Source: an uncultured delta proteobacterium
GTDB lineage: Bacteria > Myxococcota > Myxococcia > Myxococcales > Myxococcaceae
Length of the DNA stretch: 64,000 bases
Assembly: GCA_963771175.1 (NCBI GenBank)
Contig: CAVYSY010000026.1
Span: 128,001-192,000 of the forward strand
Reading direction: 5' to 3'
Shown: positions 563 to 10,148 of the stretch, in pieces
Position numbering within the stretch: position 1 is the stretch's first letter
Layout: the number at the start of each line of letters is the position of its first letter
Translations under genes and position numbers: made by a program
Notes under the pieces: generated by a model
Database searches by the model: none
What the model saw: the letters and a program-made list of their open reading frames with translations, nothing else
What the model was told of the DNA's origin: nothing

Positions 563-1349
563 ATGGAACGGCGTGGGGCGATGGGGATGGTGGAGTGGGA
601 GGAGTCAGCGGGCAATGGGTCGGTGAGGGAGGTGAAGGAGACGCTTCCGGAGGCGGAGAGCCCTCGGGAGCGCCTCTACAGGTTGGGGGCGTCGGCCCTC
701 ACCGACCCGGAGCTTCTCTCCGTGCTGCTGGGCTCGAGCTCGCGCACGCAGGTGCTGGCGGAAGCGCTGCTCGCCACGAAGGGTGGGCTCAAGGCCCTGG
801 TGCAGCAGGACCCGAGGGAGCTGTGCGCACGCCCGGGAATGGGGCCGGTGCGCACGGCGCAGGTGATGGCGGCGCTGGAGCTGGGGCGTCGGGCTCAGCG
901 CGTCACCGAGCGGCGGCCGCGCCTGCGCACCCCGAAGGAAATCTATCACGTACCTCGCGCCCACCCTGAGCGCGCTGCGGCGGGAGGTGTTCCACGTCCT
1001 GTGCTTCAACGCGCGCAACGTGCTGCTGCACGACGTCCGGGTGGCCGAGGGCACCATCAACGCATGCCCCGTGGACCCACGCGAGGTGTTCGCCGCGGCC
1101 ATCACCTCGCGCGCCTCCGCCATCGTGCTGGCCCACAACCACCCCTCGGGAGACCCGGAGCCCTCGGGGCAGGACCTGGGCCTCACCGCGCAGCTCATCG
1201 AGGCGGGCCGGGTGCTGGGCATCAAGGTGCTGGACCACGTGGTGATTGGAGATGGGACGTACACCTCGCTGCTGGAGCGGGGCGAGCTGCCGCTGCTGGG
1301 CGGGGAGACGAGAGGGCCATGGAGCATGGTGGGAGAGGAGCGTGGGTGA
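563..1349 (+). CDS. radC: RadC family JAB/MPN-domain protein, +1 frameshift near 945
   Basis: N-terminal PRERL..GASALTDPELL in the 563 frame. C-terminal AHNHPSGDPEPS..D and LDHVVIG in the 987..1349 frame. Removing one base near 945 restores KEIYTYLAP. Confidence 0.9.
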
Positions 1350-1654
1350 TGCTGGGAGCACTGGGTGTGGTGGCGTGCGGTGGGGGCGCGGTGCAGGTGG
1401 AGGTGCTGGAGGACGAGGTGGCGCAGGTGGTGCCCATGGGAGGTGGCCCGGCGCACACGGTGCCTCGCACCACCCTGCCCTCGAACGTGAGGGAGGGGGA
1501 TGTGGTGAGGGATGGCCGCCTGGATGCCGAGCTGGGGGCCCGGCTGGCGCGCGAGGTGGCGGAGTGGCGGGCGCGCCTGGCCGTTCCAGTACCTGACGGG
1601 CTGGACCTGGACGCAGGAGCCTCTGAGTCGTTGACGCCCAAGAAGGAACAGTGA
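1319..1654 (+). CDS. DUF3006-like small protein
   Basis: VEVLEDEVAQVV ... LPSNVREGDVV pattern; overlaps the radC stop and the recQ start. Confidence 0.6.
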   Translation: MEHGGRGAWVMLGALGVVACGGGAVQVEVLEDEVAQVVPMGGGPAHTVPRTTLPSNVREGDVVRDGRLDAELGARLAREVAEWRARLAVPVPDGLDLDAGASESLTPKKEQ

Positions 1655-3724
1655 ATATGCGGCGGATGACGGAGGCCCTGCCCTACTTCGAGCAAGCACA
1701 AGAGGGACTGGTCCGTCATTTCGGGCTGACCGAGTTCAGACCGGGGCAGGCCCAGGTCATCAGCTCCGTTCTGAGCGGGCGCAACACCGTGGTGGTGATG
1801 CCCACGGGCGCGGGGAAGAGCCTCTGCTACCAGCTCCCCGCCATGCTGATGCCCGGGGTGACGCTCGTCATCTCGCCCCTCATCGCGCTGATGAAGGACC
1901 AGGTGGAGCAGCTCACCGCCCGGGGCATCTCCGCCACCTTCATCAACTCGTCCCTGTCGGACCTGGAGCGCGCGGACCGCATCCGCCGGATGCGCATCGG
2001 TGAGTTCAAGCTCGTCTACGTGGCGCCCGAGCGCTTTCGCAGCCCGAGCTTCCTGGACGCGCTGGCCCAGGTGGGGGTGGACCTGCTCGCCGTGGACGAG
2101 GCCCACTGCATCTCCCAGTGGGGCCACGACTTCCGGCCGGACTACGCGCAGCTCGGCCAGGTGCGCAAGCGCCTGCGCCCACCGCGCACCGTGGCCCTCA
2201 CCGCCACCGCCACGCCCGAGGTCCGCGACGACATCGTCCGCTCCCTGCTGATGAAGGATCCGTCAGGTGTTCGCCGACGGCTTCGACCGGCCCAACCTCT
2301 TCCTGGAGGTGTTCGAGGTCGGCGGGGACGAGGACAAGCGTCGGGCTTGCGCGGGGCTCGCATCGCTGGGGGGCAGCGGCATCATCTACTGCTCCACCCG
2401 CAAGTCGACGGAGAACATGCACTCCGCGCTGCTCGAGCGGGGCGTGAACGCCGTCCTCTACCACGCGGGCATGGACGACGACGCGCGGCGCCGGGCCCAG
2501 GACGACTTCATGTCCGCCAAGGAGGCGGTGGCGGTGGCCACCAACGCCTTCGGCATGGGCATCGACAAGCCGGACATCCGCTTCGTCGCCCACGCCAACA
2601 TCCCCAAGGCGGTGGAGGCCTACTACCAGGAGATCGGCCGCGCGGGACGCGACCGGGGGCCGGCCTTCGCCGCGCTCCTCTTCAACCACGCGGACGTGTA
2701 CACGCAGGAGCGGCTCATCGAGAGCAACCACCCCTCGGAGGCGGTGCTCTCGGACGTGTGGAACGTGCTGCGCAGCGTGCCCGAGTACGACAAGGGCATG
2801 CACGTGCTGGCCGCCCAGTCGGGCGCGAGCGAGTTCGAGGTCTCCGCCGCGCTGCGCATCCTGGAGCGCGAGGGGAAGATCGAGCGCGGCGGCCGCGGCG
2901 AGGGCGAGTACGGCATCACCCTGACGGAGAAGGCCGCCACGACGCAGCCGCACGCCCCGGACGCGCGGCGCCTGCTGGCCTCGCTGCTGGAGACGTTCCC
3001 GGTGGGGCGCTCGGCCACCACGGAGCTGCCCATCCTCGCGCGGCGCACCGGGCTGTCCGGCGATGACATCCAGCACGCGCTGAAGCTGCTGGAGCGGGCC
3101 GGGGCGGTGCAGGTGCGCCGGCCCTTCGCGGGCCGAGCCATCCGCGCGCTGGAGCAGGTGCCCTTCCGCGAGCTGGGCGTGGACCTGAGCAAGCTGCGCG
3201 AGCAGGAGCGGCGCTCGCTGCTGCTGCTCAAGCGGATGACGGACTACGCCTACACGAAGCGCTGCCGGCGGGCCTTCATCCTGCAGTACTTCGGCCAGCA
3301 GGACGTGGACGCCACCTGCGGCAACTGCGACATGTGCGCCGGCAGCAGGATGCAGCGGCTGGAGGGTGTCTCCCGCTCGGCCACCGCTTCTCGGGCCACG
3401 CCGACGCTCGCCCCGGGACGGCCCGACGGCTACAGCGAGCTGGCCGCCACCGAGCTGCGCCGCTGGCGCAAGGACCTGGCGCGGGACCTCGAGGTGCCGC
3501 CCTTCATCATCTTCAACGACGAGACGCTGCGTGGACTCGCCGCGGCGCTGCCCATCGACCGCGAGGGCTTCCTCGCGGTGAAGGGCACGGGCGAGAGCCG
3601 CTGGGAGCGCTTCGGGCCCAAGGTGGTGGAGATCTGCCTCATGGCGCGCGCCGCCGGCCACGAGCCCATCCCCGTGGCCCCCGTACCGCCCCGGGTGCGC
3701 AAGGCCCGCGGCACCCGGCACTGA
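1651..3724 (+). CDS. recQ: RecQ family ATP-dependent DNA helicase with HRDC domain, frameshift near 2262
   Basis: MPTGAGKSLCYQ, DEAHCISQWGHDFRPDY, VATNAFGMGIDK, YYQEIGRAGRD, Zn motif CRR..CGNCDMC, C-terminal HRDC (VPPFIIFNDETL). Split over ORFs 1651 and 2267. Confidence 0.93.
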
Positions 3725-4101: not shown

Positions 4102-7100
4102 CTATCGTCCCCCTGCCCGGCGCTGCAGGGCCGGCAATGCCTTCTTCACCCGGCCCGCCTCGGGAGAGGCGCCCGCCAGCTTCAGGAAGGACTCGTAGGC
4201 CTGCACCGCCCGCGCCGTCTCCGCGGAGTTGCGCACGAGCGCGTCCGCCAGGGCCAGCCAGACCGAGCCGTCCACGGGCTCCAGCTCCACCGCCCGGGAG
4301 AGCGCCTTCATCGCGGTCGCCTCGTCCCGCTGCTTCAGCGCCACCTGACCCAGCACGAGGTGGCTCCGCCCCGAGGAGGGCGCCAGCCGCACCGCCTCGT
4401 CCGCGGCCTCGCGCGCCTCCTTCGTCACCCCGGCGGCGAGCAGCACCCGCGCCCTGGCCGCCTGGGCGAAGCCCTTGTCCCACGTGGTGGGCGCCTTGTC
4501 CGCGAGGTCCTTCAGCACCTTCGCCGCCGCGCGTCCGCCCGAGCCGTCCACCCAGTGCTCGCCCACCTGGCCGCACGTGACGTCCGGCCCCTCGCGCCGC
4601 GCCGCCTCGAAGGCCTTGGCCGCGTTGTCCTCGAGGCCCTGCCGCAGGAAGGCGAAGGCGATCTCACAGAAGGTCTCCGGCGATTTGGGATCCAGCCTGT
4701 TGGCGTTCTCCAGTTCGCCGAAGCCGCCCTTGGTGTTGCCCAGGGCGAAAAGAACGGCGGCGCGCGCACGATGGGCTTCGGGATCGCTCGCGGCCAGCTT
4801 CACCGCGCGCCCGGCGGCGGCCTCCGCGTCCTTCATCCGGCCCAACTGGAACAGCGCCATCGCGAACCCCTTGTGGGCCGCCGCGGCGTTCGGGTTGTCG
4901 AGCTGCCACTCCTCGAACTGCTTGAGGGCCTCGTCGGTGCGGCCCAGCGCCAGCAGCGTCCGGCCGAGCGCCTCGCGCGCCTCGCCGTGGGAGCCGTTGC
5001 GCTCCACCGCCTGCGTCAGCGGCTTCATCGCCTGGTCCGGCAGGCCCCGGGCCATGAGAAGCCGGCCCAGCGCGCACGAGGCCTCGTAGTGCCGCGCGCC
5101 CTCCGCCACGGCCGCCTCCAGCAGGGTGCTCGCCTTGTCCAGGGCCTTGTCCTGCCAGTGCACCAGCGCCAATGCCGTGCGCACCTCGGACCTGCCCGTC
5201 TTCGCCGCCACGAGCGTCTTCTCCAGCGCCGCCCTCGCCCGGTCGCGCTCGCCCTCGGCGGCATCGGCCTGGGCCAGGTAGACGACGGCCTCGGCGGGAT
5301 AGCGGTCCCCCACGCGCGTGAGGGCCAGTTCCGCCCGGACGCGTTTCCAGTCGCCCAGCTTCGCGTAGGCCCCGGCCCGCACCAGCGCCACCTGGCGGCC
5401 CTCGCCCTCCACCCGGGAGAGCACCTCGCGCTCGCGGTCTCGGTCCAGGAGCGCCCGACCAATGCCCGCCTGCGCCTCCTCGCTGCCGGGCTTCACCGTG
5501 AGGGCCTGCTCAAAAGCCCGCTGGGTGGCGGCCATGTCCCCGGCCACGCGGTTCGCCTCGCCGAGCGCGAGGAAGGTCTCGTAGGCCAGCGGCCCCTTCG
5601 TGCCCTCGGCGAGGAGCGTGCGTGCCTCGCGGGCCTTGCCGAGCGCGGTCATCAACCGACCCTGCGCCAGTTGCTGGCGCGGGCGCATCGCGACCGGCAG
5701 CGCCGGGTCCGTGGCCAACCCCTGCACGTCCGAGAGGGCGGACTCCAGCTCCTGGCCGAGCACCAGCCGGCTCTCCGCGATGCCGAGACGCGCCACCGGG
5801 TGCTCGGGGGCCAGCTTCGCGACGCTCGTGTACACCTTCAGCGCGTTCACCGGGTCGCCCGCGTCGAGGTAGTAACTCCCGAGCGACAGCAGGGCGCGCA
5901 CGTTGCGCGGTGACAGCTTGAGGGCCCGCTGGAAGCGCTCCAGGGCCTCCTGCATCTTGCCCGATTCGAGCAGCACGGTGCCGGCCAGCCCCTGGACCTC
6001 CGAGGTCTCCACCCTGGCACCCAGGAGGGCGCGGCGGGCGGAGTCGCGGCCCTGCGCATCGGCCACCAGCACGTCCACCACCAGGGCGAGCCCCGGGTGC
6101 TCCGCGCGCACGTTCGGACGGTTCAGCGCGGCGAGCGCCTGCGCACGATCCTCGGCGGAAGCACTGTCGGCGTACCGCACCGCGTGGGCGTGGGCCGAGA
6201 GGGCCCAGGCACGGGTGTTGTCTGACTCCAGATCCACCACGAGGCCGAGCTGCGCGAGCGCCTCCTGCCGGGCGGACTCCGTATCCTGCTCGATGAGCTG
6301 GGAGACCCGATCCAGCGCCGCGGCGAGCGCCTGGCCGCCCTGCTTCGCCATCACGAGGAGGAGCACGCCGAGCAGCACCACCAGGGCGCCCATCGCCGCC
6401 ATCACCTTCAGCGTGCGGCCGGAGAAGAACGAGCCCCCGTCCTTGGGGAGGAGATTCTCGCGCAGCTCACGCTCATAGGCCGCGGTGAGGGTCCCCACGT
6501 CTTGGACGGGAGCAGCCTTCCGGCCCACCGGGGCGACCACCGGCGCGGGAGCCGCCTGGACGTCCGCGGTCGCCTCGGGGAGCTCATCGAGCAGCCCGCG
6601 CCGGGAACCAAGGCCCGACGGCGGAGGCGAGAGCACGGGCCCACGCCTCTCGGGCGCGGGCGGCGGAGCGGCGGGCCTGGGCTCCTCGAGCGACGGTAAA
6701 TCCGCGAGCAGTCCGCCCTCGCTCGAAGGCTCGGGCTCGCCCTCCGCCACGGCCTCCACCGGCTCTGGACTCTCCTCACTAGAGGGAGCCTCCGCCGACG
6801 CGGCCAGTGGCTCCTCCTCGACAGGCAGCTCCTCCTCGGGAGCCTCGCTCGGAGCGGCGTCGACCGGAGCGGCCTCGAGCAGCGGGCCCCCTTCGAATCT
6901 CACCGGCCTCCGGCGTCAGCACCACCGGGGCCTCGTCCGGGGCCGCCACGTCCGCGGCCTCCAGCACCGGCACGGTAGGGCCCTCTGGAGCCAAGGGAGG
7001 AGCCGACTCGGCCGGAGCCTCCGCCACCTGGGCGGACGCGGCCTCCGGAGCCGGCTCAGCGGGAGCCTCGGGGGAAGCCTCCGGACCCGAGGCCTCCTCC

Positions 7101-7576
7101 TTGGCGACGGGCTCCTCCGCGGCCTTGGGCTCCAGCGTATTCAGGTCGCTGAACTCCGGGGCGGGCCCACCCGAGAGCGCCGCCTGGGCCTGCTCCATCC
7201 ACCCACGCACGCGGGCGTCGTTGGGCTGCAGGGCCAGCGCCTTGCGGAGGATGGGCAGCGCCGAGCGGAACAGCCCCCGTTGCAGCAGCACCTCGGCGAT
7301 GAGGTTGTAGGCGTGCGGGTTCTCTTTATCGATCGAAACGGCCTGATCGAACTGGGCCATCGCCTCGGCGGGACGGCCCAGCAAGATGAGCGCCTTGCCC
7401 CACAGCACCCGCCCCGTCACCGAGTTGGGGTGATGGGAGATGCCCTGCTCGCAGACCGTAATGGCTCGAGCGGCCTCCCCCTTGGCGATGAGGGCCTTGG
7501 CCAGTTCGACGAAAACCGACGATGCAGGATCCTGGGCGAGGAGCTGCTCGTAGCGCTCCACCAACGATTTGGCCAT
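4102..7576 (-). CDS. Large TPR protein (N-terminal TPRs, Pro/Glu linker, TM helix, C-terminal TPRs), frameshift near 6900
   Basis: ORF 6779..7591 (MAKSLVERYEQLL...) and ORF 4102..6903 join in the low-complexity linker; many TPR-like repeats; TM segment VMAAMGALVVLLGVLLLVM. Confidence 0.8.
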
Positions 7577-7647
7577 GCGGCCCGCGACCATAGCACTGGG
7601 CCCGCTTCCGTTTCGCCCCCTCTGGAATGGGTGCTACCGTCTCCGGC

Positions 7648-8067
7648 GTGATTCGCCTGCTCGCTGTGCTACTCGTCCTCACTCTCGGTGGGGCCTGCGC
7701 CCACACGAAGAAAAACTCCGACACGCAGAGCCTTCAGCCGGTGGTGGAAAGCTTCCATCAGCGTGTACGCTGGAAGGACTACCGACTCGCCTCCCGCTAC
7801 ATCGTCCCCGAGCGCCGCAAGGACTTCGAGCGGGCGCGCCGGGAGCTCAAGGACGAGAGGGATCTGTCCATCACCGACTACGAAGTCGAGGAGGTGCAGT
7901 TCGTCGAGGAGGGCCATCGGGCCATCGTCACGAGCCGCATGCAGTGGATGCGCCTCCCCTCGCCCTCCGAGAAGACCGACACCGTCACCTCCGAGTTCAT
8001 CTATCGGGACGGGACGTGGCTGCTGGAGCGGCAGGTCGGGGGCCCGTTCGACGGCGAGCTGCCCTGA
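7648..8067 (+). CDS. Putative lipoprotein
   Basis: Signal peptide with lipobox LGGAC; codon usage typical of the host. Confidence 0.75.
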   Translation: MIRLLAVLLVLTLGGACAHTKKNSDTQSLQPVVESFHQRVRWKDYRLASRYIVPERRKDFERARRELKDERDLSITDYEVEEVQFVEEGHRAIVTSRMQWMRLPSPSEKTDTVTSEFIYRDGTWLLERQVGGPFDGELP

Positions 8068-8113
8068 AAAAAAAACGCCCACCGTCCCGGGGCCGGCCGA
8101 GGCGGTGGGCGTC
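8067..8113 (-). terminator. Rho-independent terminator
   Basis: 10-bp perfect stem (extendable) ending in a 9-T run on the minus strand (A-run 8067-8075 on plus). Confidence 0.85.
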
Positions 8114-8145
8114 GGTGGCCCCCCTATGGAGCCACCTGACCATGC
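8067..8145 (-). ncRNA. Candidate sigma54-dependent small RNA (about 79 nt, two hairpins, intrinsic terminator)
   Basis: Minus strand: GGTGGCTCC-ATAGG-GGGGCCACC hairpin, then ACGCCCACCG...CGGTGGGCGT hairpin plus a T-run. Begins 12 nt after a sigma54 -12 element. Confidence 0.65.
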
Positions 8146-8155
8146 CTGCCTCTAG

Positions 8156-8171
8156 AGCAATGCGGGTGCCA
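8156..8171 (-). promoter_or_regulatory. sigma54 -24/-12 promoter
   Basis: Minus strand TGGCAC-CCGCA-TTGCT with canonical spacing. Confidence 0.8.
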
Positions 8172-8199
8172 GCCCCTCGTCCGCCGCCTCCCTCCGGAA

Positions 8200-8212
8200 A
8201 ATCAGGGGGTTG
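8200..8212 (+). promoter_or_regulatory. IHF-binding site
   Basis: AATCAG-GGGG-TTG matches WATCAR-N4-TTR, located about -55 to -67 from the predicted sRNA start. Confidence 0.6.
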
Positions 8213-8257
8213 CGCGTCCGCCCCAGGAAGGCCCCACATGAGAAGGGCCCAAGTCCA

Positions 8258-8317
8258 CGACATCCGTGTCAGGAGTCGCTGGGGGCGCCGTGGATTTCTC
8301 CCCTGACAAGCGCGTCA
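8258..8317. promoter_or_regulatory. Two dyads, candidate upstream activator sites for an enhancer-binding protein
   Basis: CGACA-TCCG-TGTCA (8258-8271) and TGACA-AGCG-CGTCA (8304-8317), consensus YGACA-N4-YGTCA. Confidence 0.45.
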
Positions 8318-8327
8318 GGGGAACCCC

Positions 8328-9272
8328 TTACTCGCCGATGACGGAGCGGATCGTCTCGCGCATGGAGTGGCGAGGCTTCCAGTCCACGTCCTTCCGCCAG
8401 CGGCCGCCGTCCACGTTGCAGAGGAACTGGATGTGGTCCAGCTCGGGGGGCGGGAAGTTGGCCAGCCGGTACTTGAAGAGGAGCCCCAGCAGGGGCCGGG
8501 CCACGGGGTGCGGCACGGGGATGGCTTTGTGGCCCAGCTCGCGGAGGATGGCGGACAGGGGCACCTCGCCGGGGCCCACCACGTTGTAGACGCCCTTGGG
8601 CTCGGGGCGCAGGGCGGCCTCCACCATGGCGCGCGCCACGTCCTCCACGTGGATGAGCTGCACCATCGGATCGAAGCCCGCGAGCACCCACGGGCGGCGC
8701 AGCCGCAGGTAGTTGCTGGGCGCGTTCTTGATGGTGGGGCCCACGATGTGGACGGGCCGGAGGATGACCGTCTGGACGTCGGGGTGCTTCCAGAAGAAGC
8801 CGTGCGCGAGCATGTCGACCTCGATCAGGTCGCGCACTCCCGAGAAGCGGCTGGCCGCCATGAGCGGCGCGTCCTCGGTGAGGAAGTTGGAGTTGTCCGG
8901 GCTGGGGCCGTAGACGTTGGCCGAGGAGAGGACCACCACCTTCTTCACGTTGTAGCGGGCGCAGTACTCGAGCAGGCGCGTGGTGCCCACCACGTTGAAG
9001 GAGTGGTGCTCCTCCTCGCTCATGCGCGGGTCGTGCATGATGCCCATGTGGATGACCGCGCGGATGTCGTTCTTGCGGAAGACGTCCTCCGCCTTCTTCT
9101 TGCGCAGGTCCAACTGGTGCATCTCGATGTCCTTCGGCTTGCCCACGAAGGGGCGCCGATCGATACCGATGATGCGCTCGTGCTTGTGCAGCAGCTTGGC
9201 CAGCGTCCGGCCCAGGTTGCCGCTGATGCCGGTGACGACGACGGCCGGTCTCTTGGAAGGATCCTGTGTCAT
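8328..9272 (-). CDS. NAD-dependent epimerase/dehydratase (extended SDR)
   Basis: VVVTGISGNLG Rossmann motif, NVVGT, SSANVYG, LRP..IVGP, IHVEDVA. Confidence 0.9.
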   Translation of the reverse strand: MTQDPSKRPAVVVTGISGNLGRTLAKLLHKHERIIGIDRRPFVGKPKDIEMHQLDLRKKKAEDVFRKNDIRAVIHMGIMHDPRMSEEEHHSFNVVGTTRLLEYCARYNVKKVVVLSSANVYGPSPDNSNFLTEDAPLMAASRFSGVRDLIEVDMLAHGFFWKHPDVQTVILRPVHIVGPTIKNAPSNYLRLRRPWVLAGFDPMVQLIHVEDVARAMVEAALRPEPKGVYNVVGPGEVPLSAILRELGHKAIPVPHPVARPLLGLLFKYRLANFPPPELDHIQFLCNVDGGRWRKDVDWKPRHSMRETIRSVIGE

Positions 9273-9291
9273 GGCGCGCGTGCCGGGGGCT

Positions 9292-10148
9292 TCACCAGAA
9301 GACGCCCTGGCGCTCCTGGAGGCCCTGGTTGAGCATGGACTGGATGGCGGACTTCACGGTGCGGACCTTCTTGTCCAGCTCGGTGTCCTCGTCGTCCGGA
9401 CGGCCCGTGAAGCGCAGCGGCTCCCCGAAGTAGATGCGGTACTTGGTGGGCAGCGGGAAGGGGCAGCCCGGTGACGGTGAGGGGGAAGGAGGGGAAGCCG
9501 AGCAGCTTCGCCAGGGGCTTCACGTCCATCAGGGCGGGAGCCTGCTCCTCGGCGCCCACCACGGCGATGGGAACGATGGGGGTGTCCGTCTCCAGGGCCA
9601 GGCGCATGAAGCCCAGACCGAAGTCCTGGAGCTGGTAGCGCTGGGGCCACAGCTTGCCGATGCCGCGTACGCCCTCGGGGAAGACGAGGATGGCCTCCTC
9701 CGCCTCGAGCAGGCGCCGGCAGTTCTCCGGGGTGCCGACGATCTGGCCCACCCGGGCCATGAAGGTGGAGACGTAGGGCAGCGAGGGCACCCACTTCTCC
9801 ACCATGCTGCGGATGGCGCGCGGCGGGTCGGCCTCCAGCAGCAGGGCCACGCCAATCATCGCTCCGTCCATGGGCAGCTGGCCGGAGTGGTTGCGAGACG
9901 AGGAGGACGCGGCCCTTGGGCACGTTCTCGACGCCGTGGACCTCCACCCGGTGGTAGTGGCGGTAGAGCCAGAAGAAGGGCGCCAGCGCCGAGAGGCTGT
10001 AGTCGAGGTTGAAGCCGAACGGATCCACCCCGTACTCGTTGCCAGTGCGGGCGAGCGCCTGCAGGCGCTCCTTGCGCTCCGGCCCCACCATGCGCTCCGT
10101 CCACTCCCGGAGATCCTGCTTCACCTTGTCGGAGAGCTGCTGGAACAT
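9292..10148 (-). CDS. Lysophospholipid/1-acylglycerol-3-phosphate acyltransferase family, frameshifts near 9893 and 9455
   Basis: VHGVENVPKGRVLLV-(NHSGQLPMDG), VFPEG and PIVPIAVVG motifs spread over three frames; ends ...QGVFW-TGA at 9292. Confidence 0.85.

Follow-up and report, generated by a model that had tools for sequence, protein, structure and literature searches.

Several bacterial small RNAs (sRNAs) that titrate proteins, among them CsrB/RsmYZ, CrcZ and EutX/Rli55, carry repeated hairpin modules with fixed loops on one transcript, and CrcZ is driven by sigma54 together with an enhancer-binding protein. The Qrr1-5 RNAs (LuxO/sigma54) are stand-alone sRNA genes, sometimes in several dispersed copies, with an activator that is encoded elsewhere. 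In the literature found, Pxr is the only functionally characterised myxobacterial sRNA, and RNA regulation without Hfq in these organisms is poorly settled. Pxr is a developmental sRNA of Myxococcus xanthus with a sigma54 promoter, upstream dyads and an IHF-like site (PMC5568312). A survey (Whitworth and Swain 2020) is reported to list tens of M. xanthus ncRNAs. Here, we describe an RNA gene, termed SL1+SL2 RNA after its two hairpins, which very probably defines a new family of independently transcribed, sigma54-dependent RNAs in three families of the order Myxococcales.

The analysed stretch of DNA (the window; 64,000 nt of contig CAVYSY010000026.1) contains a 260-nt gap between an SDR gene and a convergent lipoprotein gene, which houses a promoter, two upstream dyads and the predicted RNA (Table 1). 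A preliminary description of this DNA had proposed a stand-alone sigma54-dependent sRNA gene here, and both dyads and the promoter were found exactly where it had placed them. Standard IHF and sigma54 consensus motifs were applied; the IHF-like site, likewise at its stated position, fits WATCAR-N4-TTR but not the stricter WATCAA form. The strict promoter consensus has nine matches on both strands of the 9.8-Mb genome. With a dyad profile derived from homologous dyads, the two sites of the window rank second and third genome-wide, these own sites being part of the training set. Folding of the predicted RNA (−48.4 kcal/mol, z = −4.08, none of 200 shuffles as stable) gave a 9-bp hairpin with the loop AUAGG followed by a 14-15-bp terminator hairpin, which confirms the two hairpins and the U-run proposed before. 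The G-rich 3' arm of the first hairpin, also noted there, is real but specific to the window's family of genomes (f1).

Table 1 Features of the SL1+SL2 RNA locus and of the candidate activator cluster. Positions are those of the window unless a locus is named.
Feature	Position	Strand	Basis
Distal dyad of the TGAC-N6-GTCA type, putative site for an enhancer-binding protein	8304-8317		Motif scan
Proximal upstream dyad, ~100 bp before the -24 box	8258-8271		Motif scan
IHF-like site (WATCAR-N4-TTR)	8200-8212		Motif scan
Sigma54 -24/-12 promoter, TGGCAC-N5-TTGCT	8171-8156	minus	Strict consensus match
Predicted 79-nt small RNA	8145-8067	minus	Start placed by distance from the -12 box
Hairpin SL1, 9 bp, pentaloop AUNGG (here AUAGG) at 8127-8123	8114-8136	minus	Fold and covariation
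Hairpin SL2, which forms the stem of the terminator; loop CCGGCC (8096-8091)	8076-8111	minus	Fold and covariation
U-run of intrinsic terminator, abuts lipoprotein stop codon	8067-8075	minus	Sequence
Upstream flank: NAD-dependent epimerase/SDR	8328-9272	minus	Pfam PF01370; MXAN_1947 by gene order and length
Convergent flank: 146-aa probable lipoprotein gene	7627-8067	plus	ORF
Ser/Thr kinase and FHA-GAF-sigma54 activator cluster, candidate activator	L215:9824-11900 (G000:C39:264823-266900)		Dyads

The probable lipoprotein matched no Pfam or NCBIfam family. Its gene is kept beside the RNA in most loci of f1 and was not seen next to it in the families f2 or f4. The genes upstream of the RNA (8328-10148) correspond to MXAN_1946/1947; for the nearby MXAN_1943-1945, insertions with enhanced aggregation in a pooled screen are reported (10.64898/2026.08.28.747804). 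Elsewhere in the window (563-3724, 4102-7591 and 9269-10148), radC, recQ, a TPR gene and an acyltransferase gene each appear to be split across frames, which suggests assembly indel errors rather than real pseudogenes.

A blastn query that included some coding flank recovered the region from 35 of the 36 further genomes available for the window's family. When GTDB was scanned with a pattern, at least 119 stretches matched; among the matches listed, the 80 titled ones belong nearly all to Myxococcaceae or Myxococcales and include M. xanthus AM003 (locus L094), Corallococcus, Pyxidicoccus, Hyalangium, Vitiosangium and Archangium. Dropped as chance matches before counting were L058, L068 and L149, which lack promoter and hairpins, and L077, judged by its title alone. 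The covariance model R2 matched all 43 f1 genomes, the one f2 genome and 12 of 13 f4 genomes (13 of 14 for these two neighbouring families; best matches 74-95 bits), some of these matches being given by construction as R2 was trained on members of f1, f2 and f4. Among 92 genomes of the other six families, R2 gave no strong match and five weak ones, the best of which (37 bits) is a plain terminator. The model R1, run on 146 genomes sampled across the phylum, yielded one weak match outside the order, and viral contigs searched with an f1-type pattern yielded none. The window's genome contains no paralogue detectable by blastn or by R2, whose next match (29.5 bits) is a plain terminator.

A sigma54 promoter is present in 147 of 148 distinct loci, with the strict consensus in 137, and the single exception is cut by a contig end. 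A GAC-N6-GTC dyad lies 55-125 nt upstream in 140 of the 141 loci with enough upstream DNA (background 2.6%), a count that comprises related and hence not independent loci; the promoterless secondary f4 copies L233-L236 and L287-L291 were left out of both counts. Two dyads occur in 53 of the 141 loci, and the commonest dyad spacing is 100-101. An IHF-like word was found in 76 of 141 loci with a loose match (background 0.9%) and in 26 with a strict one. The neighbouring genes differ in f4, where they encode a kinase, a GAF-cyclase, an esterase-like protein or a cysteine-rich lipoprotein. As promoter and dyad are still present there, the RNA forms a unit independent of the SDR operon. A small ORF was considered and rejected, since an ATG near +1 is found in only 24 of the 141 loci; deletions of 1-3 nt occur in f4. 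Thus, the locus combines a promoter and a site about 100 bp upstream with a conserved structure, an intrinsic terminator and no conserved ORF, as is characteristic of sigma54-dependent sRNAs.

When 45 sequences drawn from the three families are aligned, compensatory changes are seen in 21 of 24 base pairs (8 of 9 in SL1, 13 of 15 in SL2) and 95.3% of cells are paired, a value reached by none of 500 shuffles and compared to 39-55% in slid controls; within 29 f1 sequences, 8 of 24 pairs covary. The letters A, U, G and G of the SL1 loop are invariant in all 45 aligned sequences, while the middle base of AUNGG takes all four letters (T 32, G 31, A 26, C 4 in 93 distinct sequences). In the SL2 loop CCGGCC, five of the six positions are invariant (alignment A3). 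Both stems keep their length throughout f1, and in f4 it changes by no more than 1-2 bp. The closing pairs of SL1 are frozen as CC/GG followed by R-R-Y in f1, a pattern partly imposed by the search pattern used to collect the sequences, and are G-C or A-U in f2 and f4, where the G-run is gone. Upstream of the hairpins, the 5' leader varies from about 5 to more than 110 nt, has no conserved seed and often carries an extra hairpin (e.g. L094:1625-1675), with GGGCC or CGGCC, complementary to the SL2 loop, often in or beside its loop. Judged by sequence comparison, the element is a conserved RNA gene and not just a terminator. The proposal of a stand-alone sigma54-type sRNA gene is hence supported by its relatives, in which promoter, dyad and hairpin 1 are conserved and both stems covary, and by the lack of an Rfam match.

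No Rfam family was detected at the locus (best ncS035 with 20 bits against a cut-off of 79) and Pxr (RF01812) did not match at E<=10; likewise, no family was found at six homologous loci, where Pxr did not match at E<=1. The preliminary description had considered either a new family or a dispersed Pxr-like RNA. The former is favoured, whereas the latter is not supported, given four true Pxr copies in tandem on another contig of the same genome (L031, G000:C31:275124-276112; 81-99 bits), each with its own promoter and with an upstream dyad different from that of SL1+SL2 RNA. Genomes of the genus of L031 contain up to 6 Pxr model matches, and many f1 metagenome genomes contain sub-threshold Pxr copies as well. 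Furthermore, an f4 genome encodes a Pxr-like RNA (L238, G090:C3:109430-109532, minus strand) with a C-rich SL1 loop, a sigma54-like promoter and Pxr-type dyads. It scores 35 bits, which is below the Rfam cut-off, and Pxr may reach beyond Myxococcaceae.

SL1+SL2 RNA and Pxr share the sigma54 promoter, upstream dyads and an IHF-like site, a multi-hairpin RNA of about 80-200 nt that ends in a terminator, the restriction to a part of the Myxococcales and a copy number that is raised in some genera. However, Pxr has the loop UCCCCCCC where SL1+SL2 RNA has AUNGG and CCGGCC, and the C-rich SL1 loop of Pxr (UUCCCCCCC) is absent, loop 1 being AUNGG. Pxr is located directly behind a pxrR/NtrC-type gene, while SL1+SL2 RNA follows the SDR gene and has other neighbours in f4. 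Unlike in Pxr, the terminator belongs to the conserved part of the RNA. Finally, amplification concerns modules behind one promoter in SL1+SL2 RNA and whole genes with own promoters in Pxr. SL1+SL2 RNA is probably a regulator distinct from Pxr.

Among 146 distinct loci, 130 have one SL1+SL2 module, ten have two and six have three; in L049 the spacing suggests a fourth. Tandem modules follow a single promoter with a period of 69-71 nt, and their internal U-tracts are interrupted. Titled examples stem from Myxococcus, Pyxidicoccus and one record named Corallococcus terminator. R2 finds up to 4 dispersed copies of the RNA in G087 and G090, and two f4 genera contain additional dispersed module copies without a sigma54 promoter. 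Two of the promoterless copies (L287, L289) begin 11-15 nt past a stop codon and extend almost to the start of the following gene in the same orientation. For L234 and L236, the distance from a stop codon is 30-70 nt, and L233 and L288 are found in longer non-coding gaps. In a search for cis copies of either loop, no second module was detected in the window's genome, in which AUNGG hairpins rank 98th of 192 loop types.

The dyad offers a lead to the enhancer-binding protein to which the gene might respond. In the window's genome, it recurs 92 bp ahead of a sigma54 promoter that directly follows the gene of an FHA-GAF-AAA+ enhancer-binding protein, and it occurs again before the kinase gene upstream of that gene. 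Going by an annotation row, this protein may correspond to MXAN_4020. Of 30 orthologous loci, four, each from a different genus, keep the promoter behind the FHA-GAF gene, and 26 are without it. As matches to this protein occur almost throughout the order (136 of 141 genomes), its distribution says nothing on the assignment, and it is a lead rather than an assigned activator. The strict dyad-plus-promoter pattern was found in 18 of 61 genomes, mostly at SL1+SL2 RNA. Per genome, the promoter of the RNA is usually the sole strict match, and the RNA may thus be the main output of one enhancer-binding protein.

Promoters of this type were also observed at other positions. In the f4 loci L305, L306, L309, L310 and L314, a second dyad-plus-sigma54 promoter follows 300-500 bp downstream of the RNA, and in L305, L309 and L314 it precedes a gene for a cysteine-rich lipoprotein (DUF7107/Dickkopf_N in the L225 copy). 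Two f8 loci (L293:1500-1710, L311:1500-1710) have the same dyad together with an IHF-like site and a sigma54 promoter behind an rtcB-like gene, named by eye. There, the promoter points at a conserved 27-codon hydrophobic ORF, and no homologous RNA was found downstream. A strong dyad with a sigma54-like promoter 164 bp downstream was also detected before lpxC (L216:3200-3400, G000:C19:8213-8395).

In M. xanthus DK1622, gene order and length put the locus after MXAN_1947 (RS09445). MXAN_1948 is annotated to start at 2283290, on a GTG inside the terminator of the RNA, which places the RNA at about 2283110-2283305 on the plus strand. The MXAN_1948 annotation (L094:2-1495, minus strand) appears to be over-extended by about 185 codons into the terminator and to hide a conserved antisense lipoprotein gene (L094:1028-1480, plus strand). 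Two further candidates for intergenic, Hfq-independent sRNAs of M. xanthus, named alongside MXnc1 in the text of the TRIC-seq preprint (10.1101/2025.09.11.675593), map close to MXAN_RS24205 (MXAN_4984) and MXAN_RS10995 and are thus distinct in position; that SL1+SL2 RNA is identical to MXnc1, whose position this text does not give, is unlikely. The rows of Table S1 of PMC9548883 (vegetative and predation data) contain no sRNA called or starting at the DK1622 position. Within the accessible parts of the literature searched (including PMC5684412, PMC10217877, PMC8538405, PMC11928866, PMC8844925, PMC11980068 and PMC7694542) the RNA is not described; the survey of Whitworth and Swain (2020) may list it.

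Raw reads of one RNA run (X23) were placed on the M. xanthus locus. Minus-strand depth was 29-40 over the RNA, 33-65 over the upstream gap and 44-67 over the SDR gene. There was no step-up or cluster of starts at the predicted start, and 11 molecules end at L094:1735. These values rest on 717 reads of 150 nt placed from 42% of the run, which has leaky strandedness and stems from an unknown condition. Promoters that depend on an activator fire only under certain conditions, and short RNAs with strong structure tend to be lost from libraries of this kind; the run is therefore weak evidence against abundant expression in that sample. Seventeen RNA runs contain the M. xanthus stretch as contigs, which show neither starts nor levels and were not used.

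From the standard layout of sigma54 promoters, we infer that an enhancer-binding protein at the GAC-N6-GTC dyads, probably looped by IHF, would switch the RNA gene on under some condition. The working part would be the SL1+SL2 module, whose two fixed loops on stems of near-fixed length may be recognised by an RNA-binding protein other than CsrA, Hfq or ProQ. Induction of the RNA could then titrate this protein away from other RNAs, and Myxococcus-type genomes would gain further binding sites by repeating the module in one transcript. We regard such a decoy function as the likeliest reading, though at somewhat less than even odds. A protein-binding module fits best with the fixed loops, the free middle base, the covarying stems of fixed length, the lack of a seed, the tandem modules and the copies in probable mRNAs.

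The repetition of fixed-loop hairpin modules per transcript resembles CsrB/RsmYZ, CrcZ and EutX/Rli55, but the modules themselves differ. Csr/Rsm RNAs have ANGGA loops, whereas SL1+SL2 RNA has AUNGG and CsrA was found in none of five genomes. The A-rich Crc/Hfq motifs of CrcZ do not occur. ANTAR targets of the EutX type consist of two hexaloops with A1 and G4, while here covariation makes loop 1 a pentaloop and loop 2 is without A. Like Qrr1-5, the RNA has a stand-alone sigma54-type gene and dispersed copies, but there is no Hfq in the carriers tested, no conserved single-stranded seed and no sequence similarity. As to known partners, Hfq and ProQ were likewise each found in none of the five genomes searched (controls: CsrA positive in 3 of 14, Hfq in 5 of 14), which also separates the RNA from Hfq-dependent sRNAs, and an RRM protein was found in none of three carrier genomes. 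CsrA, Hfq, ProQ and RRM proteins were therefore discarded as partners in the carriers tested. A search for ANTAR proteins was blank, as were its controls. That no protein partner emerged speaks against a decoy, as do the missing rise at the start in run X23, the lack of a called sRNA in PMC9548883 and the occurrence of pairing sRNAs independent of Hfq in M. xanthus.

An accessible, C-rich SL2 loop in the predicted fold could also serve as a pairing seed, which counts against a decoy. In that case, SL1+SL2 RNA would be a trans-acting, Hfq-independent sRNA whose SL2 loop (CCGGCCCC, stem top open) pairs with G-rich sites of mRNAs. The loop is unpaired and nearly invariant, and the strongest predicted duplexes in the genome use it, with 120 of the top 200 beginning within positions 40-49. 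Moreover, the preprint (10.1101/2025.09.11.675593) reports Hfq-independent pairing of Pxr and MXnc1 close to Shine-Dalgarno sites. However, complementary sites were not in excess in 5250 translation-start regions of one genome with crude start calls (16.9% below −9 kcal/mol compared to 19.5% when shuffled), and complementary words were not enriched near starts, as judged by an 8-mer (9 versus 16 in control windows of equal length). The mrpC gene ranks 533rd of 5250, and this only via the non-conserved 5' end of the RNA. Base-pairing would also leave the tandem repeats of whole modules and the free middle base of loop 1, a poor fit with a pairing seed, unexplained. Altogether, we consider this function rather unlikely. 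Alternatively, the RNA might be structural and assemble with itself via the self-complementary SL2 loop (GCCGGC, GGCC), forming dimers or networks with the repeats as multivalent units; kissing contacts could form between modules or with the GGGCC/CGGCC loop in the hairpin of the leader. Copies with a changed last loop base (L287, L289) still retain the palindromic core, and GGGCC or CGGCC was found in 45 of the 64 long leaders, 30 of them with at least 3 of those bases unpaired. Yet a loop of only G and C is often self-complementary by chance, its invariant positions place the palindrome beyond the reach of covariation, the divergent copy L236 shifts the motif, and the gain in self-cofolding equals what any hairpin gives, which makes self-assembly improbable.

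The complementarity of the SL1 G-run to the C-rich loop of Pxr in f1 raised the idea of an anti-Pxr sponge in Myxococcaceae, in which the G-run (GGGG-R-R-Y) would capture this functional loop. Indeed, the closing pairs CC/GG and R-R-Y in f1 are complementary to Pxr GGUUCCCC, and both RNAs are near-universal in f1 (Pxr in 34 of 36 genomes, SL1+SL2 RNA in 43 of 43). The G-run is buried in a 9-bp stem, though, and its net pairing energy with the C-loop ranges from −0.9 to +1.9 kcal/mol in six f1 genome pairs. It is also gone in f2 and f4, including G090, whose Pxr-like gene has an intact C-loop, and the f1 pattern is the one partly imposed by the search. The sponge, proposed from sequence, was demoted as accessible conserved complementarity was not found, and we regard it as even less probable than self-assembly. 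Least probable is that the element serves the SDR operon and the lipoprotein gene as nothing more than a bidirectional terminator or 3' UTR, with a coincidental or silent promoter. Such a terminator would account for run X23, where minus-strand coverage of the SDR gene extends across the element and declines close to the end of the latter with no visible start, and where plus-strand coverage of the lipoprotein gene drops at the element, too. It would not account for a promoter and a dyad kept in nearly all loci, also where the flanking genes differ, and the invariant loops, the covarying non-terminator hairpin and the tandem repeats are unexpected of a plain terminator.

SL1+SL2 RNA is conserved family-wide and very probably a real sigma54-linked sRNA gene outside Rfam, which is distinct from Pxr and shows an unusual modular amplification. 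It adds a second sigma54 sRNA gene, which all searched genomes of the family contain and which also occurs in M. xanthus, a genetic model. Returning to the module as a ligand, it is conceivable, albeit on balance doubtful, that this is a core inducible myxobacterial RNA whose two-loop module binds an undescribed RNA-binding protein or assembles with itself via palindromic loops, and which serves in cis within mRNAs as well as in the form of a multivalent decoy driven by sigma54. If true, this would reveal a post-transcriptional system that works without Hfq, CsrA and ProQ, and an FHA-GAF enhancer-binding protein together with a Ser/Thr kinase might lie upstream of it.
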